A stretch of DNA of 40,573 bases from Asterionella formosa (GCA_002256025.1 NKIB01014788.1:1-40573); one strand, 5' to 3'. Shown: positions 3,681 to 40,573, numbered from the stretch's first letter. Translations and numbers: made by a program. The notes: generated by a model not told the origin, from the letters alone.

Positions 3681-5411
3681 GATCCTGAAGGGCGAATGTG
3701 ATGTAGCAAAGTTTGGATTGACGGAAACTATTTTGCGAAGTTATGTACTGTGTGATGTAAAGTGCACGGGACAGGGTATTGCTGTGGCGGAAACTCAGAA
3801 CAACTTCACCATAGAGTGCATTACTGCCGGTACCTGATACCTGGTACCCACTCTGGTAGAGTCGACATGTGGCCTTCCTTGTCATGTGCCCATGATACAT
3901 CATATCGAAATAATCAAGCTAAATTAATACGCCGGTAAAGGCGTGCCTATAAGTAAATGTGAACATGCGCCTACGAGAAGTTATGTAAACGAATAAAGAA
4001 CGCTTCAGTTATCATATATATATTAAAATTTCGACTCGGAGTCTAGGACTCCTTCATTTATTTCTAGATTACCGGTAGTTACTGGTGCACTATTGATATT
4101 TCGGATATTAGTACCGGGTACGACTCTTTTGGTTGACGTGCTGAGCGACCGGGACTGTGCCCTGGTACCAGGAACCAGGTATGCATTCACAAGATTGAGA
4201 GCACAAATCCTATGGCCACGCGATCACCGCTACCCCACATGTCACAGGAGGTTTGTGTCGTCAATTTGATTGGTCGATCTCAAATGCCACGGTGTCAATT
4301 ATGTTCGCAGGACAGAGTATGGGACAATATCATGAATAATTTCAGTTTGCTTGATATACCTACCGGCATATGGAATGTTTTTGACATGGGCATAAGTAGC
4401 GATTTACTTATCTTACCCGGTTAATAAATAATATGTGAACACACGCTATAGTTGGTGGAAGGTACCCGATACATGTACCAACCTATTCCAACACATACAT
4501 GTCCCAAATCATTTTCAAATATTTATAAACAATAACGGTATGTCGATGGTACCAGTGCACCAGGTCCCTCTGTCCAATGTTACCGGTAGTGCATCGATTT
4601 TTCAAATTTATCTGTGGCCATTTTGACTCCTACGATTTTCTCCGGCTCAATTGCCCTTTTGTGCGACTAGCTCGAAGCTACGGATACATGTAAATTTAAT
4701 GTATATATATATTTTTATAGAAAGACAAAAATTGGCAACTACATTGAAAAAAAGCTTTTCGAATTTTTCGATTTTCACACATGGCTATCTCAATCGAAAT
4801 GCAGATGCATGAGGACCCATTTTTCTTCGAACCATCCATTCTCACCATACATACAAAGGGCGAAATAAAAGTAGAACAACGGCAACTTGCATTCAATTAT
4901 TGAATGCGCAACCCCAAATGTGGCAATGATGGGAAGGAAGAAATCAATGGTATGCTTCTTTTGAGGATTGTAACCATTATATATCCAGCAGTATGGTCCA
5001 TGTAGGTGCAACAACAATAGAAAGTATACCAGACGACAATTATTCTATTCATGTCATAATTATGTTAGTGGCTTGTTGTATTTCTTGGTTTCCCGCAAAT
5101 ATTTGAGTGGCCAGCCAACAATTTAAAACATCATTGGGCAATATGTACATGTATGGAGCTCAATGTACTTATTGTAAACTGGTTTTGATTAATTTAATTA
5201 GATTTCAATAATTTAATTACAAAAAGAGTGGGTATGTTCATGTCTATGTAACTCATTAAAAAACGCATTTTTTCGAGTACGCCAATCCGCTCATAGACAG
5301 ATGGTATATTTGCCACGTGATCCTTCATATACAAACAGTTAAGACACTAGTGGTGCCGACAAATCGATGCAACTTATATTGGACAGACGGAGTTCATAAC
5401 ATGTGATGATA

Positions 5412-5773
5412 AAGGGAATGGCTTACCGGTAGTGGTTTAGCACCACGTTGCCTTTGATCAGAGGTTGTGAGGTTCGATTTGCGCAATTTTTTGAGAAACA
5501 ATTGTTGGATTCGACTCCCACACTGCTTACCATCCTGCACGGTCTTGCCTGCTGGTGTGCAAGAAATAGTGGGTTGCCCCCTACAAGCAGCTTGTTCCGC
5601 CTTCCTAGGCGCTCGGAGTTTCTCCTAACGCTGCAGCTATGACAATCGCCTTTCGCGAAAGGTGGTTGGGGACTCACCAATGCTAACAAAACTAGGGAAG
5701 CACAGGTCTTGTTGGTAGGTAGCACAAAGAAAGACTTGCCTAGAAATAGGGGAGTACGAATTGGCTATAAAAC
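5412..5773 (+). mobile_element. tRNA-headed SINE-like repeat, copy A
   Basis: Aligns end to end with the reverse complement of 9468-9833. It has an A-box-like TGGCTTA[CCGGTA]GTGGTTTAG, a B-box-like GGTTCGATTT and an internal hairpin at 5643-5668. Confidence 0.7.
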
Positions 5774-6793
5774 ATAGTAACTGTATATAACATGTGATGA
5801 CAATACGTATATTTCAAAAAAGTATTTGAATAAATATGAACACCCAAAATTTTTTAATATGCAGTGAACCCTCCCCATCCGCGACCCTTGACCACTTATG
5901 GACACTTCATGATCCACAAAGCAAGGGCAAAAAATATCCTCCTCCACAAATGGAACACCAGACTCATCTGAATGTGATACCAGCATGCAGTTCCATCAAC
6001 ACCACCAGCACCTTACCCCCTGCCTCCACCAGTCGCATTCCCCGCCTCCCCTAAACCCAGGCCATTCCAGAGGACTCTTCCTTCATGAAAAACAATGGAT
6101 TTTTTATTATTCCACCATTCTTTCAGTTATTGATTCATTTCACCTGTGGCAAATCATTCATCGGGCTGCATATATAGTAACTTCTTATTACCCGAATTCT
6201 TAGCATTCAAGATATTCTTCCATCTCAATCGCCTTATCAATCATTTCAGGACCCAATCTGCAGGTGCATTTGATGACAGGTTGACGCATTTCGGCCAATT
6301 GTCCTATTATCTCAACAACTTATCTATGGTTCAAGCTTAATCATTGGTGATGCTGTAATTCTTTTAATTTCTCCTCCTGTTATATCATGTTTCACTTTGA
6401 TCTGGTTTTGATTGTTTCTAGAATGTAGTTCATCTGAGAAAGAGATATAGTACCAAGCACCTCTTTTTGTCCCAAACTATTACTATGCAGGTGCCATTAG
6501 TTAGTCTTGCTTTATCTTCCTGTTAACTCTGTTTTCTCACTCTTGTGTAGTACCACTTTTTGACAGAATAATGGTACTCCTCGACGGAATAATGGTAACA
6601 ATGCTTGATGTTTGTGGCAAGCAAGATTGAAGCTAATTTGCTTTCTCCCTTTGGCCTTCCACCCCAACAACAAAACTAGTAGATTCAGTAGCTGGTTGCA
6701 ACTGCAATCTATACTATCATTAGCCATATTTTTATCTCCATTCAAAAAAAGACATCACAGTATCAGCAGCACACCTATCTTCCACATCGTCCA

Positions 6794-6856
6794 GGGGAAT
6801 GCCTTAGGTGGTTAACACATCTTCCGAGGTGGCAGGTTCGATTCCTGCATTCTCTA
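6794..6856 (+). pseudogene. tRNA-like sequence (tRNA pseudogene or SINE head) with defective anticodon arm
   Basis: Perfect T-arm GCAGG-TTCGATT-CCTGC, acceptor-like GGGGAAT/ATTCTCT, D-loop-like TTAGGTGGTTAA and a downstream T-run. It is too short for a full cloverleaf. Confidence 0.55.
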
Positions 6857-8484
6857 CCTGTTTTTTATGTAGTCCCCAGGGTTCTGTGGTGTGACTGACA
6901 GAAAGACAGGTCCTTTTGTATTAAAACCCATACAAATTGTCTTTATTTATTATGGCCCGAGTGTGGTTATTGGATTGCTTTAATGTACTATAAATTAAAT
7001 CGACATTTTTTGTCTTCCAAATCGTCCATCATATCTGTACTTGCTGGTGTCATAGTAGACAATGATGAAGTACGACAAGTTGAGTTATGATGGGGAGAAC
7101 TGCCCCCAAAGGAGCTTTTTTGAATGTGACTAGCTACAGCACTTTCGATGTTAAATTTGCGACGAATCATACAGCAACCTTTCTCGTTTGTCAACAAAGA
7201 GAGAATCACCTTTTTTCGACAATTTACTTAATCGCCCATAGGGAAAAATGCCTGTGTTATTTGCCCTCTGAACCTCTAATTTGGACACTATGTTTTTGAT
7301 TATGAGAATCATCACCTCCTATCATGGATGGAATATTTTGGTGTTTGCTTTTTTTTGTCGTTGGTATAGACAATTTGTTTGTGATGGAATGGAATGGAAT
7401 GGAATGGATTCTATGTTATTGGTCTCCTGTCTGGTGCAATTTTTTATTGAATGTTGTGATGTGCCTGCCATCAGAACAGCTACTTTTTTCCAAAAAAGGT
7501 CGATTGATACTTTCAGGAAAATATACATCGATCAAACAACAGAATATTCAGCGTAGCTCCTAAATACATGATAGAGAAGAGCTACATGCTCATCAACAGG
7601 TGGATCAATTGCTTCAGATTTGTAAACAATTAGAAATTTGTTGCAAAATGTGTTTTATTCTACGTACAGAGGTTCAAAGCAGTTTTGAACTGCAAGTTGC
7701 GGTCATTTTGCTTAAATCAGCAATTAAATCTGGGATAAAGATAAATAAATCTTTAGTTCAGCAAAATTACCACAACTTGCTGGTACCAGGGTACTAAAGG
7801 TAAACTATTTGCGGGGTCAGGCATAACATATTTTCAGAATCAAAGATACGTAAATCTATATACATTTCAGTACTAATCGACTACAAAATGAGAGATAAGA
7901 ATATAAACCTAAAAGTTGCACGTATTGTGGACCGGCATCTGCTATAAGCTAATAAGTTGCGTGACTGCAAGGTGAAAGCTTGACAAAAGAAGCAAGAGCA
8001 TGGTTAAGAAATAGAATACATTCACAATACAACAAGAATATACCTCCACGAATTCGGATTACTTAAATCATTTTGCATGAAACAACTGGAGCTGACTGTT
8101 TCCTTTCCAATCACTATACCATTCAATTAATTTTCAATTACATCGAAAGGAGCACTTAGACGGAGATGATGTTTCTGAAGCACTCGTCCTGAAATGAACA
8201 GAATCATAACGACCGGTGAAAAATGCATAATGTACAGACAAATTTTCATAAAGAACAAGAAAGTGGTAAGACCCACATGCTATTGGGTTATGAGACAATT
8301 TCAATTCATCGAACATGGCACCTTATCAATGATAGTGCGCATTTCCGCCCTGTTCACCCGGAGATGAGTAGAATAATGAGAAATGGTTGACGCACAAAAT
8401 TGTAAAGGATTTGAAAAAATTTTGATGCATTATTTTTGAATTGTCAATAAATGGTTTTGGCTCAGTGATGTCCCGCCAGTTTGT

Positions 8485-9340
8485 ATGTTATACACTCAAT
8501 ACAGAATAGTTCAGGTGGCACAATATGCCACCAGAAAGACAGAAAGCAAATTTTTTGGAATTTTGAAAGTATATTTTTTCTGGATCATCATATACAACAA
8601 AAAGCGACAGTCAAATATAATCATCATCATGCTTTACTATGATCTTGTATGTACTCTTTACCAGCACTATAGACAAGTAAAGGGTTGACCTGCCTTGAAT
8701 GGCAAAATATCATCGCCTTGAATTGGAATTTTTGACCATGCATTGAGATGTGATGTAGCCAAATCCATACAGTGAGAACCTTGAATTGCCAAATATCGTC
8801 ACCTTTCTTAGGAATTTATTACCTTCTTGCTTGTATTGTTGGGACATGATGTAATCCATTCAAAGCCCAATACAGTGGCAAACTTGAATTGCAAAATATC
8901 ATCACCTTGTATTAGAATTTATTACATTGTAGCCAAAAACCAATACAGGGGTAACCCTGAATTGCAAAACGTCGTCACCTTGTATTTGAACAAATGACCT
9001 TGTATGAGGATGTGACATAGTCCCGCCAATACCCAATACATGGACAACCTTGAATTGCAAAATATCGGCGCGGCCTTGTATTGCAACTTTTGAACTTGTG
9101 TTTGGAAATAAACAAAGCCCAACAAATGGAATCCGATGTATTGGATGATATTATCTTTGACTTGCTTATTTTTACCTTGGATTAGACTTGCTTGACATAC
9201 CAACCTTGGCCTATACAAGTTTAACCTTTTATTGGAATGTTATATTTCCCTGTATTGAAGAATTTCCCCTTGTAATGGAAAATAAAATTTCATATGTCTG
9301 ACACCTTGAATTGAAAAAAACCGTTGTGACTCCCAGTACA
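8485..9340. repeat. Dispersed repeat with an internal degenerate tandem array (~75-105 bp period)
   Basis: Core CCTTGAATTGCAAAATATCRTCACCTTG recurs near 8693, 8779, 8883, 8957 and 9048. The 5' part matches 20790-21165 (ACTATGAT..TGTATGTAC..TTTACCAGCACTATAGAC). Confidence 0.75.
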
Positions 9341-9467
9341 ATGTATGCCTGGATTTGAAGGACGAAAACATGGTGAAAGGTAGTACTTAAACTTGCCAAA
9401 ATAAGTGTAGCATGAAACCACCACCCGGAAACATTGCTGACAGTAGCTACCAGATAAAATGATAATC

Positions 9468-9833
9468 TGCTTTATAGCCCATTATTACTCCCCTTTTTCA
9501 AGGCAAGTATTCATTGTGCTACCAGCCGATAAGAGCGACCTCCTGTGCTTCCCTGGTTTTGGTAGCATATGTGATTCTCCAATCACCTTTTGCGAAAGGT
9601 GATTGTCTTCGCCGCAGTTTTAGGGGAAACTCCGATCGCCTAGGAAGGCGGCACAGCAAGCTACTTGTATGGGGGCAACCTACTATTTCTTGCACACCAG
9701 GCAAGACCGTGCGGGACGCACGGTAATGAGTGTGGTAGTCGAACCCCAGAAATGCTTCTCAAAAAATTGCGGGAATCGAACCACACAACCTCAGATCAAA
9801 AGCAACATGCTCAACTGACTAAGCCATTCCCTT
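9468..9833 (-). mobile_element. tRNA-headed SINE-like repeat, copy B
   Basis: Minus strand starts AAGGGAATGGCTTAGTCAGTTGAG...GGTTCGATTCCC. Hairpin at 9580-9605. Shares the GGGGAGTA..GGCTATAAA tail with copy A. Confidence 0.7.
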
Positions 9834-10594
9834 AGTTACTACCGGGTAGTACTATAAATATGGTGATTATTCTTATTCTATTCTGATGAGCTGCTGTTGT
9901 TGATTGTTGATCCTTTGCTGTGATGTTTGTCTGATAGATTACTTGATCATGCTCAGTCCCCATGATCTATATTGAATCAGCAAAGATAGTCTTTTCCAGT
10001 CCAACCCTTAAGCATTTGAAACTGGATACTTCCTGGTCCAAGGTAACCAGTGATGACTTACAGTTGCTGGACATTTATTTTTATGAAGAATGTAGGCACT
10101 AGCTAGAAACACCCACTGTTGCCCTATTTCATAATGTTTCCAAATACATTGAATGAGAAAAATGATTCAAGGAACATGTGATGTGAGTTCTTCAGCCAAA
10201 TTTTTGATTTTGAGGACAAGGAGAATGAAGATAGTGACCCTAGTAGCATGATGGAATGGATTGATTTGTTCATTAAATTAATCGTTAAAAGAAGTGAATC
10301 CGCCCATTTAGTAGAAGCAAGATTGATATCATTTTGTGCTTTCCATTACAAAGCTTCTAAAGAAATTAATGAATGGGTACGTAATATTGTCTTGAGCGAT
10401 TTGTGATATTGATTCCTGCAATTTCTCAAGAATAAATTGTTGAGTTAAAGTCCCATATGCATAGTCTATGCATCCCTCCTGCATAGTCTGGCCTCATGAG
10501 AGAAAGAAGTGGGGTTTCAGCCACCTTATGAGCTGTTTTTGTCTTCTTCTGAGGTGATTCGATTCTCCTTAGTGATGCAACCTAGACATCCACC

Positions 10595-10918: not shown

Positions 10919-11386
10919 CAGGTTACACCGCCCTATTTGTTTTTTCAATTTTATTTCACCACTGTTGAATACCTACCTGCTGCGACATACAATATTTACT
11001 TCATTGGAGGAAGTAGCAGAAATGGAAGCGAATGCTTCAACGAGATTAAAAAAGTTCTCTAAAGTCTATTACATGTTATGGTCGTGGCCTTCCCCGCTCC
11101 TAGCATGATCTTGGTTTCATCATTTACTGGTAGACTTGTCGATCCTGGCTAATTATTTAGTACTTATATTAGCAGTCCACCTACTACCGGTAGCAAGACA
11201 TAGTATTAACGAAGGGAAATACTTTCTTCGCCATTTGTCATTAGGTTCTCATTGTTACAATCAACATCTTGAACAAAACTTCGAAATTAGTTCATCATCT
11301 TTGCAATGTAAGCCTTGTGTAAAGTTAGTCCATTGAACCATATCAACATCTCCACAACTACTTCGAATCCTTTACCTCACCTCTTA

Positions 11387-12640: not shown

Positions 12641-14429
12641 ATATAACAGAAGATGTGTGTTCGATGGGAGGAAAAATTATGCTGCATTGAATGCGGGATG
12701 ATGTCCTGCTCTTGGTCGTTTTTCTTGGGGAACAAAAGAAAACGAGCAGACTAAATTTATTGTGAGTCTATGTTCAAAAAATATTGCTGATTTAATTCAT
12801 GACTACCAGGTATCACTGGTAGACTACCCCTGGTACCTGGTACCGGTACTGGTAAGACCATACCGGTAGTGCAACTCTTGATCATCGGCATAAACCAGAG
12901 CACAGCTAAATAATATAACCGGTATAATAATACCGTATAAAAGCAAACAAATAAGAAAACTGGATCACTCGCTCGCTCTATATGATGTGTGTATGTATAC
13001 CGGTATGCAAATCATTGGGAATACTACAGGTACAAGTATAGGTGAAGTACAGATTGTATGATCCGAATACCGGTAGGTACCAGGTAGTCTAGGTACCAGG
13101 TATTGTCCCAGTGCCGGTGGCTGGTCGAAACTCGAACCATCCATATGATATGTCTGTACACGTTCAGTACCAGGTACTGTCTGCCGCTACCGCATACATG
13201 TGTTTCAAACGTGCATTTAATCCTGAGCCTGCGTATATTCCTGTTGCTCCGAGTACCCGGTATACAGCACCAGGACATTTCAGACGTGCATCATTCGATG
13301 CTGATCCCCGAGTAAATCGTAGTACGACCATACATATTCATCCCTCGTAATGCAGGGTCTTGTACCCACCCTGGTACCAGGAACCAGGTACTCTGGTACA
13401 TGGAAGTTGTTGCAGTAATTAAGCTGGAAATAAAAGTCTAGCTTTCTTTATCCCATATTAAATTGTTTATTTAAGGTTGAGGCCCCTGATAAACCCTAGT
13501 TTGGAGAAAACATCGCTAGGGTTGTTAAGATGGCAGGGTACAGCCCGCCTGCAGGGCTTCGAAACCACAACTAACCGATGGAGTCGGCTGACTTTCGAGC
13601 CAGTGGTTTTTTCTTAAGTAAATTCAAATTATAACTGTAACTAAGAAAAGGTAATAACTGCTAAACCAAGCCAACTCACAGTGAGCAAAGAATTTAGATA
13701 TTGAGCAAAAAGGTTCAGGATAGAGCAAAAGGAAAAAGTCATGGGCGAAAAATAAAACCTCGTAATATTTGGGCTGAAACAATTTCGTCTTCATATGTCG
13801 GAATCAGAGCAACAATTAAGTAAATTCTTTGCAATACCGATCATTGAGCAATTTTAGTTATACCAAACTATGGTTAAAATCACATTGACCATGTCGGTAT
13901 ATTCTGTTGGATAGTAACTCATCAATTTTACAACCTCCTGCGCCGCTTGATTTATCAACATAACCGCCATGATCAGCGCTTTCAGTAAATGCATCAAGCG
14001 AAGCGGGAGCACACGATTTCGTTTAAATACGACCTATTTAGTGTTGAGCATGGCAAATCCATGCCTACATGACCAACCAAATCACGTGCAAAACCTCTTG
14101 AGCTTGACAGTAGGATACCTGGAGTTGAAAATGTACAGGAATTCCTCAAATAGGGTGCTATAGCAGTAACAATATAGCTACTTCAGCGATTCCACAACCA
14201 TCGCTGTGCAATGGACTCGATTTCAAGGTCATCATGAATGAATTCAGCCATGACAAGCAACAACGATATTGGATGGTAAAATTATTTAAATGCATACATA
14301 ACATTTATTCATGTGTGTGTTATTTATGCAAAAAATTTTACTGATGCTAAAATTATGTTGTACTGGTAGCTACGGTGGCTACCTAATGTAGTTTCAGGAA
14401 ACAGCCAGCCATATAATATTTATTTTAGT

Positions 14430-14800: not shown

Positions 14801-16270
14801 ATTGATTTCCTGTAAAGCAATGATGCCATGAGGATGAAGAGGAGTGACATCTGGCATCATGACGGTGAGTACAAAGGGAAGAGGATGCAACCAAGAATGT
14901 GAAATGAGCAATAAATGTGATGATGAATGTGCACATAAAAGCGATAGTAGTGGTTACAATAATTTTTATGTACCATAGTACTTGTACTCACAGAAATGGT
15001 ATACGTTATACGTGGTTAGAGTGATGCTGGGCGGTGCAAATCTAAATAATACTAGTTGCACCAGCCATATAGTATGGTGTATCACACTTGTATTGACAAA
15101 AAACGCACATGTTCGCTCAATCAGGATTCCATTTAAAAGATTAGCCTTTGGTAGTAGAGAGCTACTACAAGCTAGTAGTGCTAGATATCTACAGGACAAT
15201 GATCGGGTAGAACGTCGTGAAGGTGATCTTCACTATAACCTCAACCGAAAATCACTAGCTTCACCGTGTTGTCTTGATGAACAACAGTTTGATCCTTTTC
15301 TCAAATACTGGACGATTGGTGTCCTGTGGAGGTACACAGAATCCTGGTACTTTGTCCGGAAGAAGTGATATGATGAGACCCGTCGACATGGATGGCTAGC
15401 TCTTCATAAATCCGGGCGTGCACAAAACTTTGTGTTCCTACATACCGGTATGATACTAAATAGACCAAATCTTTGTTTAGCTAGAACGAAGGAATTACCG
15501 TACTTTTTGTCGAGAAATGGATGCTTTTATAATTTATGAAGTTTGCTTCTTCTTTGGCAAAGTCTATACTATATTAATAGCTCATATGGCAAAGGCCAAT
15601 ACAGCCAGGTAAGTGAGCTGGCCAGAGATAAGCAATTGGCTGAAGTGATCCATTTAGCAGTATAGGTACCAATAAAAACTACCATGACCTAGTATTGAGA
15701 ATATTTTTGAACTGCCGTGACCCAGCCATTGAACGCAGAATAACACATCTTGCTATCAATACCTGAGTAAATGTAAATTCTGAGAGTTCTGGTTCCTTCT
15801 CGAGCATATAGGCTAGTCAGCCATGTATTTAGTTTGAGATTTGGAGTCAGTTGTTCGTCTCTATAGATTGCCGGAAATATTGAATCGACCCAAAAACATG
15901 GATTAGGGTAAGTTTGGAGTTCTCATCGTCATATAATATACAACGAATATACAAACATTTCGACATTGATTTAAATAGTGTCTGAACGTCAACCACGTTT
16001 ACAACAATATAGATTTTGTTTTCGTATTGGATTGTACAGAGATGGCAAATGGTACCTTGGCTGACAAAAAAGAAAGTCGACTAGTACTGGTTACGAAAGG
16101 CAGGTGCTAGTGCTGTCCCCATCATGGGTAAAGTATAAGGAGATTCTCAGGCAGATATGCGCTCATTTTCCTATTCAAGTAGTTGTAGAACATCTAATTT
16201 GACAAGAGAATAGGATGATGACATGACAGTAGACAATAATATCAATGATATTAATAGGTGATCTACAACT

Positions 16271-16890: not shown

Positions 16891-17139
16891 ATCAAGCCCT
16901 TGGAAACATTGGTGATTGCCAGGGGTGCCTATTCGTACTACCAGGTTCACCAAATTTGGTCAACACAAACACAAAATTTGGGGTTATGTATGTTTGAATA
17001 CTCATGATATATATAAATAATAAAATTATATATTATCTGAGCATGCCCAATATGCCAGTATGTATGTCCCGATAACAATACCAGGTAGTCAGTGTCATCA
17101 TTCCGGTATCACGATACCAGGTAGTCGTTTCAAATCAGC

Positions 17140-18018
17140 ATGCCAACAGCTCCACAAATTGATTGTCCCATTTCGTTGGGAGGATTCTTTCCTGCAGAAA
17201 GCGATGACGATGACGACGATGACGAAGAAGAAGAACTGAATCAATGCTTTGAAGTACAAAATGTGGAGCTGGAAGGCGCCACTTTGAAGATTCGACAATT
17301 TGCTTGGCACTCGCACAATGCTAATCGAGTTTGGCCTGGTACTTTCAATTTGGCTTCGTATTTATTAGTCAAGGGAGACGACGGCTGCAAGTATAAGAAT
17401 GATTGGGGGAGGGTTTTGGAATTGGGGAGCGCTACTGGAATATTAGCAATTCGATTGGCCATGGTCTCCAAGAAGCATCATGCTACTAAAACTGCTACTG
17501 CTGCTTCCACCGGTACTCCACTCGAAGCGATCGAGACGGTTTGCGAATCGATTGTTACCAGTGATGTAGCGGATGGGGAAGTAGGAGAACACGTGTTGTA
17601 CAACTTCAGACTCAATGACTTTGCCGAAACCAGCATACCGGTACATGTCCCACATACGTGGGGGACAGGATGGAAACACTGTGCGGATGAGTTACTTGGT
17701 GGGACAGATTGTCAACCATTCGATACCATTGTTGCTAGCGACATACTACTCTATGTCTCGGCATATCCAGCCTTGGTGAAGTCCATCACTGAGATCATGT
17801 CTCGCACCACCATTTTGGTCATGTCGTGGAATCGAAGAATGAAGGAATCGGGAGAATTCTTCGAGCGCATGGACGAGGCTGGGTTTGATTGTCGTCATGA
17901 GGGGAAGTGCATATATACATGTTCATGGAAGAAGAAATGTAAGCTGCCAGTCGGGGAGGAACAACACGTGGGTCATGGTGAACTTCAGGTGATGCCGGAG
18001 GACAGGAATCACTCTTAA
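17140..18018 (+). CDS. SAM-dependent lysine methyltransferase (Methyltransf_16; METTL21/23-like), 292 aa
   Basis: NRVWPG, motif I VLELGSATG, TSD, (HT)WG and DTIVASDILLY (DxxY-like). Confidence 0.9.
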   Translation: MPTAPQIDCPISLGGFFPAESDDDDDDDEEEELNQCFEVQNVELEGATLKIRQFAWHSHNANRVWPGTFNLASYLLVKGDDGCKYKNDWGRVLELGSATGILAIRLAMVSKKHHATKTATAASTGTPLEAIETVCESIVTSDVADGEVGEHVLYNFRLNDFAETSIPVHVPHTWGTGWKHCADELLGGTDCQPFDTIVASDILLYVSAYPALVKSITEIMSRTTILVMSWNRRMKESGEFFERMDEAGFDCRHEGKCIYTCSWKKKCKLPVGEEQHVGHGELQVMPEDRNHS

Positions 18019-18931: not shown

Positions 18932-20055
18932 GAAGCAAATAACTTTCGGTTTGAGGGGAACCCAAAATAATAATGTTGCCTGGAACTATATTTCTGGACT
19001 GCCGGTAACTTGTGGACTATAATTATACCGGTACCAGTAGTATGATTCGCTGCTAGGAGATAATTTGGCCCCGCCATCACAGTTTAGCATTGCATTGATG
19101 ACTTCGCAGTTTCAATCACCCATGACATTAAACAATCTTTTACGAAGTACTATCATGTATCGTGTACACTAGATATTTTGACAGTGCCTACTTACAAAGG
19201 ATGATGTAGACGAGACACAACAATGATGTAGAACACTCAACGACAAAATGAGCATGTCACCTCCATGATCATGACCAGTTTTTAGTAGATGAAAATCTCA
19301 AATGGTCTCTTTTTGTTTTGCTGGCTTTTCTTTATGCAATAAGAGGCATACCGATTCCTTCCCTTCGGAGAAATTGCAATATGTATGTAAATATTAAAAC
19401 CCTAGTACCAGTACTCAGTTCAATCTCAGTTCCATCCTACATCTACGATTGAACTGAGTACATGCATAAATTAGAAAATTCAGGCAAGGACACATAAACA
19501 TGATAACACCGACTTCAACCATGATGTGTTAAGGACAAAGGCATTAGTCTACTGGTACCAGTTACCAGGTACTATTGAGTTACCGTAGTACCTGGTAGCT
19601 ACTACATAGCATCAAATGGAACACAAACTATTTTCACAGCAACATCCTCATCTGCCCTCATGGCATTCATGAGAATATTCTTTGCTGCGACGTATTCACT
19701 GGTACTCCAGGGACCAGGTACCAGTTCTTCACCGATGCGTTCCCGATGCAATGACTTGAATTTCTTGAATGAGGAACATTTAAGGAATTGGGTCATTTAA
19801 ACCAGCTTGAACATCATTCCTTCCATTGTTAGTATGTCGTCGTATTTTAACTTTAAATCACACATTCATATACCGGTATATAACTGATGTGAAAATTGAC
19901 TTTAGCGTGCATAATGCAAAAATATAGGCATGGAGTCCTGATGGAGTCATTACTCCGAGTCATACTGCACTTGGTCGCGATGCGATGCGGTACGATACCC
20001 AGGTAGACCCGGTATGTACCCTGGACAAACATTTCCTTCGGATATTAACGAGCGG

Positions 20056-21165: not shown

Positions 21166-21169
21166 GTAC

Positions 21170-22657: not shown

Positions 22658-23395
22658 ATGTTACAAGTTTCTCCTGTCGTTGTATATAGCATATGCCAAG
22701 AGTGTATGAATCTTTCCAGAAAATGACGAAGATACAAAGGAAGGACATTTTGCCATCCTGATGCACCAAATCGACTCAGCCGCCTACATCGCCGCTGGGC
22801 TTATTGAAATGCACATTGTCAACAATGTAAAACTCTCTTAACTTTTGATTTTAGCATACCGGTAAATCATTCATTCGTCATCCCTCATCAACAAACCAAC
22901 ATGTTACAAGTGTCTCCTGTCGTCGTATATAACATATGCCAAGAGTGTATGAATCTCCCAGGAAATGACGAAGATACAAAGAAAGAAGGAAATTTCGCCA
23001 TCCTGGTGCACCAAATCGATGCAACCACCTACAACACCGCTAGGCTTGAAGAAATGCGCATTTTCAAGAATGTAAAACTCTAAAATTTAATTGGTGCATA
23101 AATCATTCATTTTTCATCCCTCATCAATAAACCAACATGATACAGGTGTCTCCTGTCGTCGTTTATAACATATGCCAAGAATGTATAAATCGCCCAGCCA
23201 GGAGGCAATGACGAAGATACTACAAAGAAAGGAAATTTCACCATTCTGATGCGCGCAGCCACCAAATCGACACAGCCGAATACATCGCCACTAATAGGCT
23301 TATAGAAACACGCATTATCAATGTAACACTCTAAAATGTAAAACTCTAAAATTTGAAATATTTGCACAAATCATTCATTTGTCATCCCTCATCAA
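22658..23395. repeat. Three diverged tandem copies of a ~240-bp unit (starts 22658, 22901, 23137)
   Basis: Each copy has TCTCCTGTCGT..CATATGCCAAGA..ATGACGAAGATAC..CACCAAATCGA..ATGTAAAACTCT..AATCATTCATT..TCATCCCTCATCAA. Confidence 0.92.
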
Positions 23396-24959: not shown

Positions 24960-25668
24960 TGATTTATGTGTTTGCACAATAAATTGATGTTAGTTGACAC
25001 AAGAAATTTGAGAAAATACGGAAAACGAGGTAATATTTTCTAACCGTTTATCATTAAATAATAAGTATACATGACGAAAAATATATGAATGGCTGAAGAC
25101 CACTGAAATGCAAAATGAATGACTTAAAAAGTTCGATATCGTAAGATAAATACTTTAAATTGTTAAAATGATTCATTTATCTTCTAGTACTTGCATGCAG
25201 TTGTCGACCTGGCTTGGCTGAACATCTTTCTAATTTTAGTCCAAAAACGGGGTGATTATCACACCATAGTGGGCGGTCTTAAACTGACACTCCGTACCTT
25301 TACGTCACCATCTAAACCTATCTACAGCGTCATCACACATGTAAAAATGCTGCCTATATTTGGAGGTACCTGGTACCAGGTACCAGGTACCAGTACAAAC
25401 CAGCACCAGTTATAATTATTGTTCTTGACACCAATGTGGAGCGACTAATTTATGCAGAGGGATGTGGAATTATTATATACGCGGATACATATTAAGAGCT
25501 TTACGGCAATGCATACGGTATTCATTTTCACCACAAGCAACGAACCAAATCCTTCCTCGCTCTACTATCATGTACTAGCCTTTTCATGATATTCCAAACC
25601 AAACTCTCCTTGCTTGCGAACAATCATCTATTGAAAGAGTCAACTTATAACCTACGCGCTAAAGGACC

Positions 25669-28693: not shown

Positions 28694-30101
28694 ATTGGCT
28701 ATGAAAACATTTATCAAAATCAAATGCTTTACACCAGCACGGAGGAGTGATCAATCCATTGTTCTCCTTCTTTCTCAGAGCGTGCGATCAATCAAAAGAA
28801 AAAATACGATTTCTTTCATTTTTGTCAGCCGACCCTGGATGCCGATGATGCGGCTACCTGACTTGTTTACTAACTATTTTAGCTACCAGGTACCGGTAGA
28901 CTACATAGTACATACGGTGTAGCAGTGATACTCCACCTGTTAGTACCTGGTACCTGGTACTTCTTGGTGGTCAGTACCAGGGTACTGGGACTGTACCGGT
29001 ATCAGGAGCGGTACTCCTTCTGCCATATGGTTCAGTGTGAAGTCAATGTACATAGACACTAAATAACGGTTATTACATTAGTCCAAACAATTCCTTGCTG
29101 TTCTTGTTATGGTGTCGCTATGCATGTGTTCTACATACCGGTAAGCCAATCGGAATCCGTATCCCTAAACCTTCAAGAAGGTGAACAAAATCCAAAATTC
29201 GTGCGTTGGCCGCTACATAGATAGGGTACCGGGGTACCGGTATTGTATTTGGTATACATGCAGGATGAAAAGAAGTGACTCTCATCCTTTCACTGCCTTG
29301 ATGTTACATGACATCACGCAGAAAATCGACGATTCCTCTTTCGTCTTTTACTGAAGCTCACTCTCGTTGTTAGAGGTAAGACGATTCTGCTATTCTGAAT
29401 GAAAAGAGAGTAGAAGGAATGAAACACTTTGTTAATTTGAGACGAAAAGACTGCGTGTTCAACGTGATGGTTTCCAATCGCTGCCTACACGTAGAATGAG
29501 TACGGAGTACCTTGAACAAGAACGGATCTGTGGGCTCTTTACCTATTGGCTATTTTGTCAAATGGATCCAATGGAACAGTTTTCTTTCCTTTTTTCGTGG
29601 ATGGAGCAGCTTTCTCTTTGCAAGTTGCCGTTGCTTGTCAGCAGGGAAAGGACCTCACATTTTCGAAAGGCGGGGAGGCTTTCAGATTGGTCAATTCGTT
29701 GTGTCTGCGATTTGTTCTTTCTGACGAAGGACTCTCCTGTCGTTGTCCGTTTTTCCTCGTCCGTTCTTCGCCGCTTTTCTCGATGTATCATGTACGTCCA
29801 CACGTCATTGTCTCTCTTCTATTAGACTTGGCGCTTGGTTCATGGATCGCGGGTTTCTGGAGCTTGCGAAAGGAGTTCAAACATCAGTTGACAGTCCTTA
29901 AATCATCCCAGACGCCCGCGGAACAACACGTGTGTCAACTGCGAATTATTTAGCTGAATGAAAAAACCATGCCTATGGACGTCATGTATTTTCGAGATGC
30001 TTGTTTGATGGGATTCGTCAGCATTCGTTTTGACTATTAGAATTTCATTTATTAACAATTAATCGTTGTCCCGTCTCTATATAGCGACTGGCTCTAACGC
30101 C

Positions 30102-33666: not shown

Positions 33667-34659
33667 TTCAGTGGTGACCCGGTCAGGAGAAATGGTCGGA
33701 AAACAATGTTCGTTTCGAAGTTAAGGAAATAACCAATGAGAGGGAGAGAGATTACTCGCCCTGCTTGCTCGTCTACTTGAATAGGAGCAATGGTAATGAG
33801 CGAGGCAGCAGATTATGATGGATTCAGGGTTTATGTGATTATGTGATAAATATAGTGTTACCTAGTAGTTTCAGATTGACGAAGCCATCACTTTGAAATC
33901 ACGTCGGAAGCAAGAATGAAGCGCAAATGCATCATATACTAGGTATGATTTTCAGGAAATGACTTCGACTTAGATCAGAAAATTCCTACTACCGGTATGA
34001 ATTTCAGGAAATGACTACATATATGACTTCCAGGAAACGTAAGGAAAAGCTTAAAGAAAATCGCACTGTCGCATGATGTATGTTGAACAGTATCTAACGG
34101 ATCGAGGTACCTGGTACCTGGTATGCTGTTCAGTGTTCACCACTCGCTCGTTTTTGCAACACTGGAAGAATCTAATTATTTACTTCTTTAAATCGTGGAA
34201 TGAAGTGAAGACGTTCTTTACATATGACGATTTATGCGCTTGTCCGTCGCGACCTTGCTGTCCGTTTCAGGATAATGACCGCAATTTCCTGATTTTTGTA
34301 CCCACTCTTGTGGACATATCTAAATAATTAAAACTGTCATTGTACCAGATGCCAAGTACCTCTTGTTGTACATATTGATGATAGGAATATCATACTGAAA
34401 CCATACAAGTAGAAAATGAGAAGGACAACGAATGAGAACAATTATGCTGAAACTGCACAGAGCGACAAAAATCGTTGGTAAACTGCACAGAGAAAGATCT
34501 GCACGCCTTTGGTTTAAAATGTGTCGAAATCCTCGCCGATGCCGCAGCAACCTACCGGTAGGTACTATTTTTCAAAAGGTACCTTACAGTTGCGTTTTTG
34601 AAGGCAAGTGTAAACAACAACAGCTCCTCTTTCTTTCTCTCTGCATCTTGTTGATGATA

Positions 34660-36598
34660 ATGATCCAGAAGTGTGCTACGCTGGTGTTGTTGGCGTTGGT
34701 TCACACGCCGGCGGTGATCGCCAACAATCTGATGCAGGTCGATACATTTGAGCTTTCTGATCTCCTTTCTGGACAGCGCTTGCACGACTTGTCCACGACG
34801 TTGAGTACGACTGGTCTGTTGGCCATTCGATCTAGTCACTTTCGTTTCGACGCCTTGAAATTGGTTTGTCGTCGTCAGCAGAATCTCCTGGCTTACAAAG
34901 GGGACGCTACGACGAGCGTTCTATTGCAAGATGGCGTCACCACTCGCACTACTTGGGCCACAGCTACTGTCGGAACTACCCCTTTGCCACTTGGCACAGA
35001 AGCAGAGGAGCTTGACGCCTTGCGTGACCAGGTGGCTTTGGCGTCGAATGCATTCGTCAAGGCGTTGGATCGACTGTTGTCAATTGCAGACAAGGATGAT
35101 GTTGACACGCCGTTGCTACGAACGGACCGTGGTGTTCAGTATTCGTCAATTGAATCCATTGTGAAGGCGTCGGTTCACTTGGAACACTTCCACCTCTATG
35201 AAAAGGGAGACACAACATCAAATGAGGAGACTTTGGAATGGCACACTGATGCTGGACTCTTTCTAGCCTTCGTTCCAGCGTGCAATTGTCGCGGTGGAGA
35301 GGAGCATGACTCATCCCTTTGGGTTGACAATAGCCCTGTTGTGTTTCCTCCCAACACGATTGCCATTATGTTGGGTACAGGAGCTGAAAATTGGCTTCAG
35401 ACGCACCTAACACTTCGAGCGACTCGACATGCTGTCAAGATGAACGCTGGAGATCTCAGAGCATGGTACGGCATGAGTAAGTCATTCAAGTCGTGACTAT
35501 ATCGTATTGCGTTTCTTAGCTCAACAATTTTTTTCATCACTGACTTGTTTCAAACTTCATGTATACACAGTGCATCTGGTTCCTGATAGTGCTATCATTC
35601 AAGCGAACCCCACACGTACCTTGGGAGAGATGCGCCACTCCATGGCTCATGGCGATTCGCCAGACATTGGCTGTGGAACTGCCCCCATCCCAACTACCTC
35701 GATTCATGAATCGACTGTGGTGGTAGCAAGACGCCGACTCTCCATGGTGGCGGATGCCAGTTACTGCAACAACTCAACCAACTTGTTCTGTTGGATGAGT
35801 TGTCTTGATATACCAAATGCCAGCCAAGCTGCGAACTATGTGGCAAATGGCAAATCTCTCTATTGTTTGGATCCTTCAATCCTTGATGCCGGAAGCGGTG
35901 TGGCAGCAGCTGAAGCTCCCTGTGCAAATAGTGCCATGAATCCCTCTTGTGTGGGAAGCTGGCAAACCACAGTGGATGGTGTCTCTGCTGTGACGTTGGT
36001 CAGGGGGGACACTAGCAACTCCACTAGCAACTCCACCAGCAACTCCACCAGCAACTCCAATAGCAACTCCATAAGTAACTCCAATAGCAATAGCAATAAC
36101 AATGCTCAATTTTGCTCCGGAGGAATATCCATGTACATGGATGGCTTCAATTGGCTCGGTTCTGTCTGCGTCATCTTCCTCTTCCCCTCGTGGGTGTTGA
36201 GCACTCCAGGAAAATTGGCAGGGGCGTGCATTGGAACAATTGTCCTTTGTATTCTTCTTGAACTTTTGATTCATGGCCGTCGTCAATATATTGGAGGCAC
36301 CATGTCGGCTGGCTACAAGCGCCTCGTTGCATCCGCACTTTCCTATGGCCTTCAGTTGACCATTGGATACTTTATCATGTTGATCATCATGACATACTCT
36401 GGCCCACTTTTTGTAAGTGTGGTAGTGGGGCTTATTGGTGGACATGTCTTGTTCAATGCCCAAGACGCAGTGTTTGGAGCCAAGACGACGAGTGATACCA
36501 CTAATAGCAGTAAGGATACCGACTCGGAGGAAGGTGATGTCCTCATTCCTGAGGGAGCAACTCCTTGCTGCCTTAATATATCGTCGTCTCCTGCATGA
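34660..36598 (+). CDS. Signal peptide + 2OG-Fe(II) oxygenase-like domain + Cys-rich linker + Ctr (SLC31) copper transporter, 2 exons (34660-35476, 35571-36598), ~614 aa
   Basis: 94-bp GTAAGT...CACAG intron in frame. Oxygenase-like motifs WHTDAG, TRHAV and R(AWYG). Ctr motifs MYMDGF, IFLFPSW, MLIIM (MxxxM), GLIGG (GxxxG) and C-terminal PCC. ATG 34654 is an alternative start. Confidence 0.85.
36013..36103 (+). repeat. Coding 12-bp minisatellite (Ser-Asn-Ser-Thr)n
   Basis: AGCAACTCCACY units decay into SN dipeptide repeats. Confidence 0.9.
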
Positions 36599-37200
36599 TT
36601 CACAAGCAGCTGATGCTGTGGATTGATTCATGTTGTAAACACCGGTAAATGCTAATTTCAAAAATTAAATATATTTATATGATATACCCGGTATTCTGGT
36701 ATTCCTTACATTTCATTTACCATGATTAGGAGGGGAGTGATGATACTCGGTGGTGTGAAGAATAGTTTTTTCGTTTGTTGGTTGTGATAGTTCTCCTATA
36801 GTAGTCCCTCAACTTCGAACACTATTTGTTTATGCATTCATCATTGCTGTGCAAAAAGGCAAATACCTGGATTGACCAAAATAAAGGATCTCCTTCTAAA
36901 CTCTACTTTTCAAATGATTTTTCCACCTCGATTTAAATAAAGTAGAACCAAAACTGTAAACTATACCTGGCGTGTTGCCCTATTTTAATTGCCAGTTTCT
37001 CTTCAAATCAAGACCCGACCTGCAGTTTATACCATGTCATCATTTTGATCATAACTTGACTCTTAAAAAATTTACCAACATTTTAATTCCTAATTGAATT
37101 CAAAGGAGTGATAGTGAACATGCTCAACCACTGCTGTACCATAAAACGCCGCACAACTTTCTCGTTCCAGATGTATTGAATTTATTCTTCCAAAAATAGA

Positions 37201-38010: not shown

Positions 38011-38391
38011 NNNNNNNNNNNNNNNNNNNNNNNNNNNNNNNNNNNNNNNNNNNNNNNNNNNNNNNNNNNNNNNNNNNNNNNNNNNNNNNNNNNNNNNNNN
38101 NNNNNNNNNNNNNNNNNNNNNNNNNNNNNNNNNNNNNNNNNNNNNNNNNNNNNNNNNNNNNNNNNNNNNNNNNNNNNNNNNNNNNNNNNNNNNNNNNNNN
38201 NNNNNNNNNNNNNNNNNNNNNNNNNNNNNNNNNNNNNNNNNNNNNNNNNNNNNNNNNNNNNNNNNNNNNNNNNNNNNNNNNNNNNNNNNNNNNNNNNNNN
38301 NNNNNNNNNNNNNNNNNNNNNNNNNNNNNNNNNNNNNNNNNNNNNNNNNNNNNNNNNNNNNNNNNNNNNNNNNNNNNNNNNNNNNNNNNNN
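38011..38391. other. Assembly gap (381 N)
   Basis: Run of n characters. Confidence 1.
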
Positions 38392-38709
38392 CTACTACCT
38401 GGTACTCCCCCAGGCAGTAGAATGCTGGTAGATTTCTATTTGGTGTGCGTTTCCCTTGATTCAGGACCTGGTACAGCGGAGACGAAGCACGAAAAATCCT
38501 CGAGGAATGCTGAGGATGAGGATTGACTTGCAATAATATTTTTTTTATATATGCATTTTATATTCCTACAGGGACACCTTCTGTTTTGCTTTTGCTCTTA
38601 TCAGACAGTTGAAAGCCAGCCTTCATAGATACCACTACTGCTTGAACCCGTGTGTGCCAAGCAACTATTCTGTAGACCTACCTCGCACGACCTACCTCTG
38701 CCTACCACC

Positions 38710-39312
38710 ATGATCCAGTGCATTCAACTTTCTCGACGTGGCCTTGCGACCGGCACACGGATCTCAACAACGCCATTGCTGTTTGCACGTCTCACAGCAG
38801 CTCGTATTCGTAGTAGTCCGTCAATGACAGTCCGACAGTACAACTATGTCACCAACCCCATGACTCCTCAAGAAGAACAAGACGAAAAGGACCGCGTCGC
38901 ATCACTCACTCCCTTTCAAAAAGAAATGGAACTCCGCAGTTTGGATCAACAACTTGCCAAACTACACATGCTTCGCGGCATTGCCACAGGAGAGCTGTAC
39001 ACGTGGCGAGGCAAATTCAAAGCTCTGGCACGAGACTATGGTATGCCCTTTATGATGTGGTATTGGACATGCTGGGTGGCCACGGCTGGCATGACCTATG
39101 GGGCGATAGAACTTGGGGGTTGGGATGCCATGGCATTGATTGCGCAATTGGATAACCTCACCGGCTTTCATTTGGTAGACAAGGTAGATCCCACAGTTGG
39201 AACCATTGGTGTGACACTGGTGGTGAATGAAATGCTGGAGCCATTGAGATTGCCCATTGTTATCATGACCACCAAGCCTGTGGTGCATTTCTTGAGTCCG
39301 CCTAAATATTAA
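38710..39312 (+). CDS. DUF1279/FAM210-like membrane protein, probably mitochondrial, 200 aa
   Basis: Presequence-like N-terminus, KFKALARDYG, a hydrophobic helix, and NEMLEPLRLPIVI..TKPV. Confidence 0.8.
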   Translation: MIQCIQLSRRGLATGTRISTTPLLFARLTAARIRSSPSMTVRQYNYVTNPMTPQEEQDEKDRVASLTPFQKEMELRSLDQQLAKLHMLRGIATGELYTWRGKFKALARDYGMPFMMWYWTCWVATAGMTYGAIELGGWDAMALIAQLDNLTGFHLVDKVDPTVGTIGVTLVVNEMLEPLRLPIVIMTTKPVVHFLSPPKY

Positions 39313-39464
39313 ACCTAATGTGGTGGCTGGACTTATTCATAAAGGATAGTAAGTTTACCCGGTAGTGCACTTTGCTGGTTTCATCATCATCTATACTGCA
39401 GTAGCAAGTAGTTCAGGACAAGTAATATCATAACTGCATAACATAACTATACTACATACCAGTA

Positions 39465-39902
39465 TCAATTTGGTTCCTTGGAAAGAATGGCCTTTATGTC
39501 CATGTCCGTCCACGATTCTTTCCCATTCATCATTGCATTCGCTTCGTCCATCGTGATTGTTTCTCCTGCCACTTTCGCCAAATCCACGAGTCCCTGTGCT
39601 GTCATTAGCGGCGGCACTAAAAAGTCATCTCCTCCTCCTTGGTGTTCCGTTTGAGACATAAGTATATCCAAAACTACATCTACTGTAATGTTCTCAGCTA
39701 CCCCCAGCATGGCAGTCAATTCTTCAATGGATATTTTGCCATATCCCAATCCCAACCAAAGAGTTTGAAAGGTCCTTACATCAATAATTCCAATTTTATC
39801 GTCGTCCAATACATCAAAGGAGGATCGAATGGTATGTTCTTCATGTTCTTTACTATGACTACTGCTCGTTCGCTTTCCACATTGTTGTTGTTGTTGTGGC
39901 AT
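39465..39902 (-). CDS. Divergent EF-hand (centrin/calmodulin-like) protein, 145 aa
   Basis: IRSSFDVLDDDKIGIID (EF-hand), LGY, and L..AK.AGETITMDEANAMM resembling the centrin C-lobe. Confidence 0.7.
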   Translation of the reverse strand: MPQQQQQCGKRTSSSHSKEHEEHTIRSSFDVLDDDKIGIIDVRTFQTLWLGLGYGKISIEELTAMLGVAENITVDVVLDILMSQTEHQGGGDDFLVPPLMTAQGLVDLAKVAGETITMDEANAMMNGKESWTDMDIKAILSKEPN

Positions 39903-40573
39903 TGCAGATGATGAACGATTGTAAATATTTATATTTTATACTTCACTCGAACTATAAAATAAAATTGGATGATGCTGTCCATTTGATGAGGATACATTTG
40001 TTTTTGCTTCTTGCTTTCTCGTCGTCTCGTTTTGGTACCAGGTACCAGGTACCACAGGTACTCACAGCCCGGCACGTCGTATCAGTCGTTGTCGTCGTAT
40101 ACCGGTAGTAAGTAGAAATAGTATCACCTAACAATTTATATGCAGCAGGCGCCAGCGGTCGACACATACCCGGTATTCCAGATTCCAGATGATTTCATAT
40201 GTACAATGCCTCTGCCTGGTAGAATATCATATACCAGGTCGTTAACATATTAAATTATGAAATACCATCATGCTTTGCTGCAGATAAGTCCACTCTGCAA
40301 AAACAGTCATAGCTTCAATTCCCATTACACTAACGATGTCATCCATGTCAAAAGTCTTCAAGATGATGATAATCCCTTGTAAAAAATCATCTTAATCTCC
40401 TCGCCAAGCTCAACATTCAAGCAGGTGCTCTCACTCATAAAGCCTATATAAAGTCTGCCCTTTTGACACTACTCATTACTTTTCACCTACAGGAGTCAAT
40501 GCCACTCTGCTGCTCTCTGGCCATCCAGTTACCTCTCAACTGGTTGCAACCACAATGACTGCATATTACACCA

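Follow-up and report, generated by a model that had tools for sequence, protein, structure and literature searches.

Excision footprints of transposable elements are textbook knowledge, usually as rare, single-locus curiosities; here, in at least two diatoms, they seemingly account for a large share of promoter DNA. The Tc1 footprint in Caenorhabditis elegans is TACATGTA, and Stowaway elements share the conserved end CTCCCTCC. In Triticeae, Stowaway scars are described as consisting of TA, 2–4 letters of one element end, 1–2 letters of the other, and TA; several distinct scars occur at one site, and a full element has re-inserted at the TA next to an earlier scar (PMC1925063). Ppmar2 and Osmar5 are described as retaining 1–4 end letters (PMC9632168), and the canonical Sleeping Beauty scar is given as TACAGTA or TACTGTA (PMC6943129). 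We analyzed 40,573 nucleotides from Asterionella formosa (GCA_002256025.1 NKIB01014788.1:1-40573; this whole stretch is referred to as the window), which are rich in short words of the form TA-CC(N)GG-TA. These words are probably the end-joining scars of a TA-targeting cut-and-paste element with CCAG…CTGG ends, accumulating in 5' intergenic DNA. A resident family of ~95-bp MITEs (transposable elements of the miniature inverted-repeat type) would be one such element.

The window resembles plant mariner-like and Stowaway systems (in yeast, Osmar5 and Ppmar2; in Triticeae, the beta-amylase intron) in its TA target, its scars of end letters, and the multiplicity of those scars, and it resembles Stowaway further in re-insertion at a scar TA and in having a small element without coding capacity that folds as a hairpin and carries terminal inverted repeats. 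Unlike those systems, the ends here are CCAG…CTGG, whereas the published scars reflect others (TACTCC…AGTA etc.), and unlike the single grass loci presented there, we find 47 scars in 40 kb, which make up about a tenth of promoter DNA and are confined to 5' intergenic DNA. Strict membership in Stowaway was considered and rejected: the ends here read CCAGCAAGTTGCGG, and the family works like a Stowaway-type MITE without being a member by sequence. The Sleeping Beauty scar, TA-C(A/T)G-TA, is a three-letter analogue of TA-CC(A/T)GG-TA with a free central A or T; the core here differs in having five letters (more retained letters, or 3+2 joining) and in being natural and genome-fixed rather than experimental.

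The Tc1 footprint has the same 2+2 build as TACCGGTA, namely TA, two end letters per side, and TA; we know of no report of hundredfold-enriched Tc1 scars or of promoters composed of them. Promoters can also carry homotypic clusters of transcription-factor sites and general promoter words such as yeast poly(dA:dT) tracts. Like these, the diatom words are short, repeated upstream of most genes, and free of strand bias; unlike either, the units share letters, appear to arise as insertions, obey a two-ended grammar, and match the ends of a mobile element. Our search of the open-access literature found no description of these words in diatoms and no relevant account of diatom excision footprints or mariner-like elements; text matches to the motif strings themselves were primers and barcodes. 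The mechanism is of a known kind, and its scale, its promoter confinement, and its clean junction grammar are new within the open-access literature searched.

Enrichment of the core words

The initial annotation of the window had listed 20 exact TACCGGTA sites, more than 20 copies of TACCNGGTA, longer variants, and chains of units sharing a TA. Pattern search recovered all 20 TACCGGTA coordinates exactly, compared with a mean of 0.26 and a maximum of 2 in 100 dinucleotide-preserving shuffles, and found 27 copies of TACCNGGTA (shuffle mean 0.41, maximum 3) with the centre letters A (12), T (9), C (4), and G (2). Longer variants are present as well (TACCAGGGTA at 7784 and 28975, TACCCAGGTA at 19996, and TACCGGGGTA at 29227): four sites have a two-letter centre and two have a three-letter centre, and allowing centres of up to six letters gives 58 matches. 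The chains are real at 25364-25393 and 40034-40061. Going forward, we define a core site as one with a centre of 0 or 1 letters, of which the window holds 47. Enrichment is about hundredfold in the window and, for TA-CCWGG-TA (W, A or T), about two-hundredfold in the second diatom described below.

Among 8-mers without N, TACCGGTA is the most over-represented in the window (20 against 0.18 expected). Because of TACCGGTA and the chains, GGTACC (32 against 4.2 expected) and CCGGTA/TACCGG (59 against 6.6) are in excess as well. According to the annotation, both sides are always flanked by TA. This double TA greatly outnumbers every other flank, being found at 20 CCGG and 21 CCWGG sites where the next commonest combination reaches 5 and 3; it is not the sole flank, as the window contains 74 CCGG and 85 CCWGG in total. 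The letters outside the TA of TACCGGTA are close to random, and TACCWGGTA is mostly flanked by GG and CC because of chaining.

The same words in a second diatom

Scanning metagenome contigs for GGTACCWGGTACCWGGTACC gave at least 124 stretches, stored as 123 loci; the high-GC loci and some others are bacterial and contain the seed alone. From the remainder, we defined a second diatom set of 24 contigs of at least 5 kb (42–48% GC, 266 kb total) with eukaryotic genes, including a phosphoglucomutase whose named relatives are all diatoms (50–55% identity). This set contains TA-CCWGG-TA 301 times against 1.3 expected, although loci were picked for holding a chain, so that 2–3 CCWGG units per locus are forced. 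The set further contains 116 TA-CCAG-TA/TA-CTGG-TA (6.2 expected), 147 TACTAGTA (2.8 expected), 1862 TA-C-TA/TA-G-TA (422 expected), and 18 TACCGGTA (1.7 expected).

Other words were seen in this set. TA-GTC-TA/TA-GAC-TA is 6-fold enriched, and promoter islands such as L014 2380-2980 contain TAC/TAG runs (TACTACTA, 416 against 5.7 expected), TACTAGTA, TAGCTA, and TACTCGAGTA. TA-C-TA, TACTAGTA, TA-GWC-TA, TA-GC-TA, and TA-CTCGAG-TA may stem from other element families, possibly with ends C…G, CT…AG, or CTC…GAG.

Junction grammar

The core's length variants are strongly asymmetric. We tested the rule that the letters between two TAs consist of a 0–4-letter prefix of CCAG followed by a 0–4-letter suffix of CTGG, using as control its mirror image (ends CCTG…CAGG), of equal composition and symmetry. 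Variants generated by the rule and not by its mirror are CCA, TGG, CCAG, CTGG, CCAGGG, CCCTGG, CCATGG, CCAGTGG, CCACTGG, and CCAGCTGG; CCACTGG and CCAGCTGG were unseen in the second diatom. Rule-only variants number 206 against 31.3 expected in the second diatom (6.6-fold), where mirror-only variants number 25 against 32.9 (0.8-fold). The corresponding counts are 17 against 5.4 and 3 against 4.2 in the window, and 335 against 51.0 and 43 against 52.9 in all 76 loci below 50% GC.

Within the second diatom, TA-CCAG-TA (64) and TA-CTGG-TA (52) are ~20-fold enriched, and TA-CCTG-TA (7) and TA-CAGG-TA (4) are at background level. If single letters were lost from CCWGG at random, both pairs would be equally frequent. 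The independent predictions of the rule are the CCA/TGG, CCAGGG/CCCTGG, and CCATGG classes only. CCA/TGG was found 63 times against 24.6 expected (mirror CCT/AGG, 13 against 26.4), CCAGGG/CCCTGG 21 times against 0.3 (mirror CCCAGG/CCTGGG, 1 against 0.2), and CCATGG 4 times against 0.2. Judged from these junctions, the grammar is the signature of ends …TA-CCAG and CTGG-TA… that were variably trimmed from the inside and then joined. A palindromic binding site, point-mutational decay, or slippage would not yield such a grammar.

A MITE family with matching ends

An element with CC…GG termini and TA flanks had been predicted, and the window does contain one: a ~95-bp MITE, TA|CCAGCAAGTTGCGGTCATTTTGC…GCAACTTGCTGG|TA, which ends TA|CCAG…CTGG|TA and has no coding capacity. 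Its inverted arms are CCAGCAAGTTGCGGTCATTTTGC and GCAAAATTACCRCAACTTGCTGG, and its hairpin fold has a z-score of −7.4, with 0 of 200 shuffles folding as well. Two copies are in the window. Copy A (7689-7783, + strand) has the right end …CAACTTGCTGG followed by TA at 7784-7785 and a mutated left end (ga|ACTGCAAGTTGCGG); copy B (~13399-13475, − strand) is partial and diverged, with TA next to its end at 13397-13398 and scar units beyond that TA. Two more are on related metagenome contigs: the L009 copy (885-984) has TA|CC on its left and CTGG|ga on its right, with terminal inverted repeats that agree by eye at ~21 of 23 positions (CCTTGCAAGTTGCGGTCATTTTGC against the reverse-complemented other end), and the L063 copy (from 389) reads …TA-CCAGG-TA|CCAGCAAGTTGCGGTCATTTTG. 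TA is present at four of the seven readable ends (on the right of copy A, in copy B, and on the left in both L009 and L063).

Contigs of four sequencing runs from four studies (X1, X2, X6, and X7 are named here) were aligned on 11000-30999. Beyond 13475, 59 contig ends of X6 and 30 of X7 agree on the consensus CAAAATGACCGCAACTTGCTGG TA. The MITE end consensus …CTTGCTGG occurs in contig ends of three runs, with TA next in X6 and X7. Depth in the bin at copy B is ~106,000 against ~900 for single-copy DNA (~115-fold), which puts the family at roughly a hundred or more copies. The MITE end had no match in a collection of prokaryote genomes or in a viral collection.

Scar units adjoin all four MITE copies. 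At 7780-7793, the window reads CTGG|TA|CCAGGG|TA: the first TA of the TACCAGGGTA scar (7784..7793, CCAG+GG) is the flanking TA of copy A, which places the element at an earlier scar's TA. The same juxtaposition is found in L063 (TA-CCAGG-TA|CCAGCAAG) and in L009 (CCAGGG-TA|CC).

Filled and empty sites

If the words are footprints, TA alleles that lack them should exist. Empty TA sites were found, in copies of repeats and not in true orthologues. The tandem repeat at 22620-23400 (236–245-bp unit, 2.3–3 copies, ~84% alike, within a high-copy region) carries GCATA[CCGGTA]AATC in copy 1, with TACCGGTA at 22857..22864, and GCATA|AATC and GCACA|AATC in copies 2 and 3; BLAST places the identical 6-nt gap at 22857. 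A second case is an inverted repeat pair, 5412-5774 and 9468-9833 (~360 bp each, ~80–85% alike, 3.7 kb apart), in which the left copy reads GGCTTA[CCGGTA]GT, with TACCGGTA at 5424..5431, and the inverted partner reads GGCTTA|GT in a locally poor alignment. The outer ends of this pair look tRNA-derived (GGGAATGGCTTAGTCAGTTGAGCA…GGTTCGATTCCC) and resemble the heads of short interspersed nuclear elements; ARAGORN called no tRNA in either copy. The L063 MITE copy contains an 18–19-nt block, CCAGTA-CCTGGTA-CCGGTA, at GCTA|A and a 10-nt block, CTGGTT-GGTA, at TTTA|A, both absent from the three other copies.

Contig L035 holds a 4.6-kb direct duplication (1-4646 and 4905-9610, 97% identity) with a very long open reading frame (ORF) in each copy. 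All 17 indels between the copies lie in the last 450 nt, a non-coding tail; some turn TA into TA-X-TA, and they include GAA[TAC]TATTC, GAT[CTA]CTATC, ACT[TAGCTAGC]TAGAAC, and ACA[TAGCAGTAGC]TAGTTC. Between populations, the X7 contig over the island at 12951-13409 has 12 letter differences plus 43 gap letters, and a contig over coding DNA (11000-12048) has 1 letter difference and 0 gaps.

Three further comparisons gave no filled/empty contrast. Both copies of the 19960-20205 duplicate carry CCGGTA, homology between L049 and L063 stops where the island starts, and a pattern search for relatives of the kinase gene in metagenome contigs returned 47 matches, none of them confirmed.

Concentration in 5' intergenic DNA and a possible promoter function

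We placed the 47 core sites on a map of ORFs and Pfam hits made in this analysis. The ten 5' intergenic regions hold 37 core sites in 7.3 kb (5.1 per kb), and all ten recognized regions have at least one. By comparison, coding DNA has 2 sites in 14.9 kb (0.13 per kb), 3'/3' spacers have 2 in 1.9 kb (1.03 per kb), and repeats plus gene-poor DNA have 6 in 15.9 kb (0.38 per kb). The initial description was of window-wide scars; the words are concentrated in 5' intergenic DNA rather than spread at random. In the second diatom, ORFs have 0.04 core sites per kb and 3'/3' spacers 0.08 (a single site in 12.7 kb), compared with 2.09 per kb for tandem spacers and 3.09 for divergent 5'/5' spacers. The words favor neither strand with respect to the downstream gene (TACTA 331, TAGTA 315; TACCAGGTA 55, TACCTGGTA 47). 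These densities and strand counts show that the phenomenon is promoter-specific, strand-symmetric, and not private to one species.

Such a distribution would also be expected if the words were functional promoter elements under selection, either sites of a palindrome-reading factor or nucleosome-excluding DNA, and if the MITE resembled or targeted them. We regard this as unlikely, though it survives better than the other alternatives. Besides the contrast between 5' regions and coding or 3'/3' DNA in both diatoms, it draws on the presence of a core site in every recognized 5' region, on the sharing of TA-CCWGG-TA by the two diatoms, and on the 301 perfect copies compared with 48 with an altered flanking TA. 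However, the length variants are asymmetric, with A standing by CC and T by GG, which is not expected of a palindromic binding site, and the units share TA at 6–7-bp spacing, so neighboring factors would clash. New copies are exact 6–19-nt insertions at TA rather than products of point mutation, and island differences between populations are mainly insertions and deletions. Sites also occur within unrelated repeats (5424, 15443, 22857), the words have no strand bias relative to the downstream gene, and no such diatom motif was found in the open-access literature.

Mixed chains and the case for slippage

The annotation attributed the chains to repeated insertion and excision at one TA, and their composition agrees with this, as units of mixed kinds stand side by side. 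In the window, 8 neighboring pairs are unlike and 4 of the 12 are identical (unlike pairs include CCTGG then CCGG, and CCGGGG then CCGG), which argues that the units are not slippage copies. Adjacent W letters in the second diatom are independent (AA 22, TT 18, TA 20, AT 15; 40 same against 35 different). Over all loci, same-letter neighbors exceed different ones (136 against 78), which points to a degree of slippage as well.

Slippage would have to account for much more if the islands were low-complexity DNA formed from a GGTACCW heptamer seed by replication slippage or error-prone break repair with templated insertions, and with no transposon involved. The identical neighbor pairs and the overall same-letter excess fit such an origin, as do the 7-nt arrays that Tandem Repeats Finder reports at nine places and the ordinary slippage indels (TTG, TTGTC, GCCTGC) that the L035 duplication also carries. 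We nevertheless consider it improbable: isolated 8-mers stand in ordinary sequence with near-random flanks, chains combine 6-, 7-, 8-, and 9-nt units, neighboring W letters are independent in the second diatom, CCGGTA at GCATA|AATC is not creatable by slippage, and the mirror-asymmetric grammar and the end-matching MITE are left unexplained.

An assembly or library artefact, for instance linker remnants, has next to no probability: nothing was found in its support beyond the fact that the window contains a 381-N gap (38011-38391), the words recur in independent metagenome assemblies, and the clusters are covered by contigs of four runs from four studies, the densest being identical to X1 over 12421-13467 without any difference and also spanned there, with differences, by X2, X6, and X7 contigs.

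Proposed mechanism and evidence that weighs against it

The reading as excision footprints is supported by the grammar, the resident MITE, the filled and empty repeat copies, and the mixed chains. Under this model, an element with CCAG…CTGG ends would insert at TA and duplicate it, which is suggested by the flanking TAs. Excision would leave 0–4 terminal element letters on each flank, as the grammar implies, and joining of the flanks would give TA-CC+GG-TA, TA-CCA+GG-TA or TA-CC+TGG-TA, TA-CCAG-TA, TA-CTGG-TA, TA-CCAG+GG-TA, and so on. Each scar would offer two new TAs, so repeated rounds could build chains of unlike units. Promoter restriction requires an insertion bias: insertion may be strongly biased to 5' intergenic DNA, where the scars are found, with open chromatin as the probable cause. 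The outcome would be promoter DNA of which scars make up about a tenth, with rapid turnover through insertions and deletions. A Tc1/mariner/pogo-type transposase encoded outside the window is presumably the enzyme at work.

Several observations weigh against this model. The CCAG/CTGG termini were derived from the same data as the grammar test, so that class is circular. Restriction to 5' regions, near-absence from 3'/3' DNA in the second diatom, and a vocabulary common to two species also fit promoter function. TA is lacking at three of the seven readable MITE ends (ga, ga, cg), and the X1 consensus (109 ends) reads …GCAACTTGCTG and then TTAAG, without TA. Among the 12 indels listed of 134, all are of 1–4 nt and within repeats and none is at a motif, and no 6-nt indel is listed at 15443 or 22857, both of which lie in high-depth repeats. 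An element together with its own scar at one orthologous site was never seen, the comparisons being between copies of one repeat.

The search for source elements adds to these points. No DD34D/DDxD transposase with a TA target, as sought by the annotation, was found among window ORFs or related contigs: Pfam recognized a transposase domain in 0 of 139 ORFs of at least 170 aa from the metagenome loci and in none of 67 ORFs taken from gene-poor window DNA. The 118 one-sided TA|CCWGG ends gave no recurring family with a shared longer end, in a search in which gene-rich metagenome contigs under-sample repeats and which the MITE itself, ending CCAGC and not CCWGG, would escape. Two larger candidates came from a gapless search for TA|CC inverted repeats, which was dominated by island words. 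The first, on contig L076 (7465-7936; 468 bp, TA|CCAGGAAGAGAC…GTCTCTTCCAGG|TA, arms agreeing at 17 of 20 positions), ends CCAGG…CCAGG, so that its right end is CAGG and not CTGG, and it has no second copy in 540 kb. The second, in the window (19871-20527; TA|CCGGTATATAACTGATGTGA…TCACAGCAGTTTTTTACTGG|TA), is decayed, with arms agreeing at 16 of 20 positions. Repeat boundaries located from loose ends gave no TA|CC pattern besides the MITE.

The L076 element has the ends CCAGGAAGAGACAGTA… and …TACCGTCTCTTCCAGG and about fourteen internal ATTAGGAGCATTT-like units, and it lies inside a scar island of the second diatom. The window candidate lies in a repeat of ~200-fold depth, has GCTGTGACCCAC repeats near its ends, and holds TACCCAGGTA at 19996. 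A DUF6818 match at 16573-16959 is the exception among the 67 gene-poor ORFs, which have no transposon domain.

The sole transposase of the window, a PIF/Harbinger DDE_Tnp_4 ORF (3-1004, − strand, E value 2.9e-23) that runs off the window start, was considered as the scar source and rejected. PIF/Harbinger elements duplicate a 3-bp TWA target; here, TA is immediately adjacent to CC and GG, and its outer neighbor varies, so this ORF is not a likely source.

Sites along the window

The remaining sites are described from left to right. The island 5' of the ankyrin gene (3838..4120) has TACCTGGTA at 3838 chained to TACCCACTCTGGTA at 3845, TACCGGTA at 4070, and TACCGGGTA at 4112, with an additional TACCGGTA beyond the island at 4581. 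An isolated TACCGGGTA (9840..9848) is 11 nt outside the right copy of the tRNA-like repeat pair, and an isolated TACCGGTA (11185..11192) is 3' of the kinase gene. The densest island (12804..13398), 5' of the same gene, comprises 10 core sites plus variants in mixed chains, such as TA-CCCCTGG-TA-CCTGG-TA-CCGG-TA-CTGG-TA at 12825-12854; scar-type units make up ~12% of 12641-13426. Another isolated TACCGGTA (15443..15450) is within a high-copy repeat.

Two TACCAGGTAGTC sites (17079..17123) lie 17–61 nt upstream of the methyltransferase ATG (17140). This 12-mer, which reads TA-CCAGG-TA-GTC, occurs at 13078, 17079, and 17115 and at ~808 of the related contig L009. Within the methyltransferase gene, TACCGGTA at 17636..17643 (+ strand) encodes Ile-Pro-Val, which is kept or nearly kept by all 11 aligned homologues. 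Since these are codons of a conserved Ile-Pro-Val, we rejected this site as a scar and consider it a chance match.

Sites 5' of ORF 18257-18700 (− strand) span 19026..19597 (TACCGGTA at 19026, TACCAGGTA at 19563, and TACCTGGTA at 19589). The chain at 25364..25393, TA-CCTGG-TA-CCAGG-TA-CCAGG-TA-CCAG-TA, is 5' of ORF 25915 (+ strand). In the divergent 5' region between the pyruvyl-transferase and aureochrome genes, an island (28884..29242) has 7 core sites plus TACCAGGGTA and TACCGGGGTA, with the mixed chains CCAGG+CCGG and CCGGGG+CCGG. In a further divergent 5' region (33990..34123), TACCGGTA stands at 33990, and TACCTGGTACCTGGTA forms a chain at 34108. TACCGGTAGGTA (34553..34564) is near the start of ORF 34432-35496, a possibly coding stretch.

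The sole core sites in the 1.9 kb of 3'/3' DNA are TACCCGGTA at 36685..36693 and the site at 39356-39364. In the divergent 5' region between NDUFS4 and a FAM210-like gene, which contains the assembly gap at 38011-38391, TACCTGGTA (38396..38404) adjoins the N run; with a scar unit at the gap edge, further units may be hidden in the gap. The last island (40034..40175), 5' of ORF 39465-39902 (− strand), consists of the chain TA-CCAGG-TA-CCAGG-TA-CCACAGG-TA (40034..40061), TACCGGTA at 40100, and TACCCGGTA at 40167.

Genes and repeats of the window

The window is freshwater-diatom nuclear DNA. ORFs with Pfam hits include bZIP-PAS (aureochrome-type), protein kinase, Methyltransf_16, NDUFS4, Ctr copper transporter, and ankyrin-repeat proteins as well as the DDE_Tnp_4 fragment. 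The aureochrome-type gene (bZIP + PAS/LOV; 30120-31547, + strand) has one short intron, and a recorded protein is 100% identical to its 446-aa spliced product; the next-nearest relatives are ~72–73% identical, and all named relatives are diatoms. Sequencing runs that contain window DNA are labeled algae, freshwater, or lake metagenomes.

The ankyrin and kinase genes occupy 1904-3391 and 11387-12640, both on the − strand. The methyltransferase gene (Methyltransf_16; 17140-18018, + strand) encodes an Asp run and an insert of ~14 residues (KTATAASTGTPLEA) that are absent from most aligned homologues, and a variant in another sample is 98% identical, with one additional Asp and a few substitutions. 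No tRNA and no Rfam family turned up when the window was scanned. The stretches 13000-17000 and 19670-25670 are gene-poor and have 50–300 times single-copy depth in four runs; they are probably non-autonomous repeat families.

Implications for diatom promoters

If the words are excision scars, they would provide a natural record from which transposition could be dated in an algal group of ecological importance, an example of extreme promoter targeting by a TA-inserting element, and a concrete source of fast, indel-driven promoter change between populations. The combination of a prefix and a suffix between duplicated target sites, scored against a mirror control, is a signature that can be searched for in other genomes. 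It is also conceivable, though we hold it doubtful, that scars were later co-opted as working cis-regulatory or nucleosome-excluding DNA, in which case the transposon system would have written about 10–12% of the letters of nearly every promoter in a lineage of freshwater and other diatoms, in chains that record successive visits. Promoter evolution there would be driven mainly by transposon traffic, and each promoter would carry a readable log of insertion and excision.

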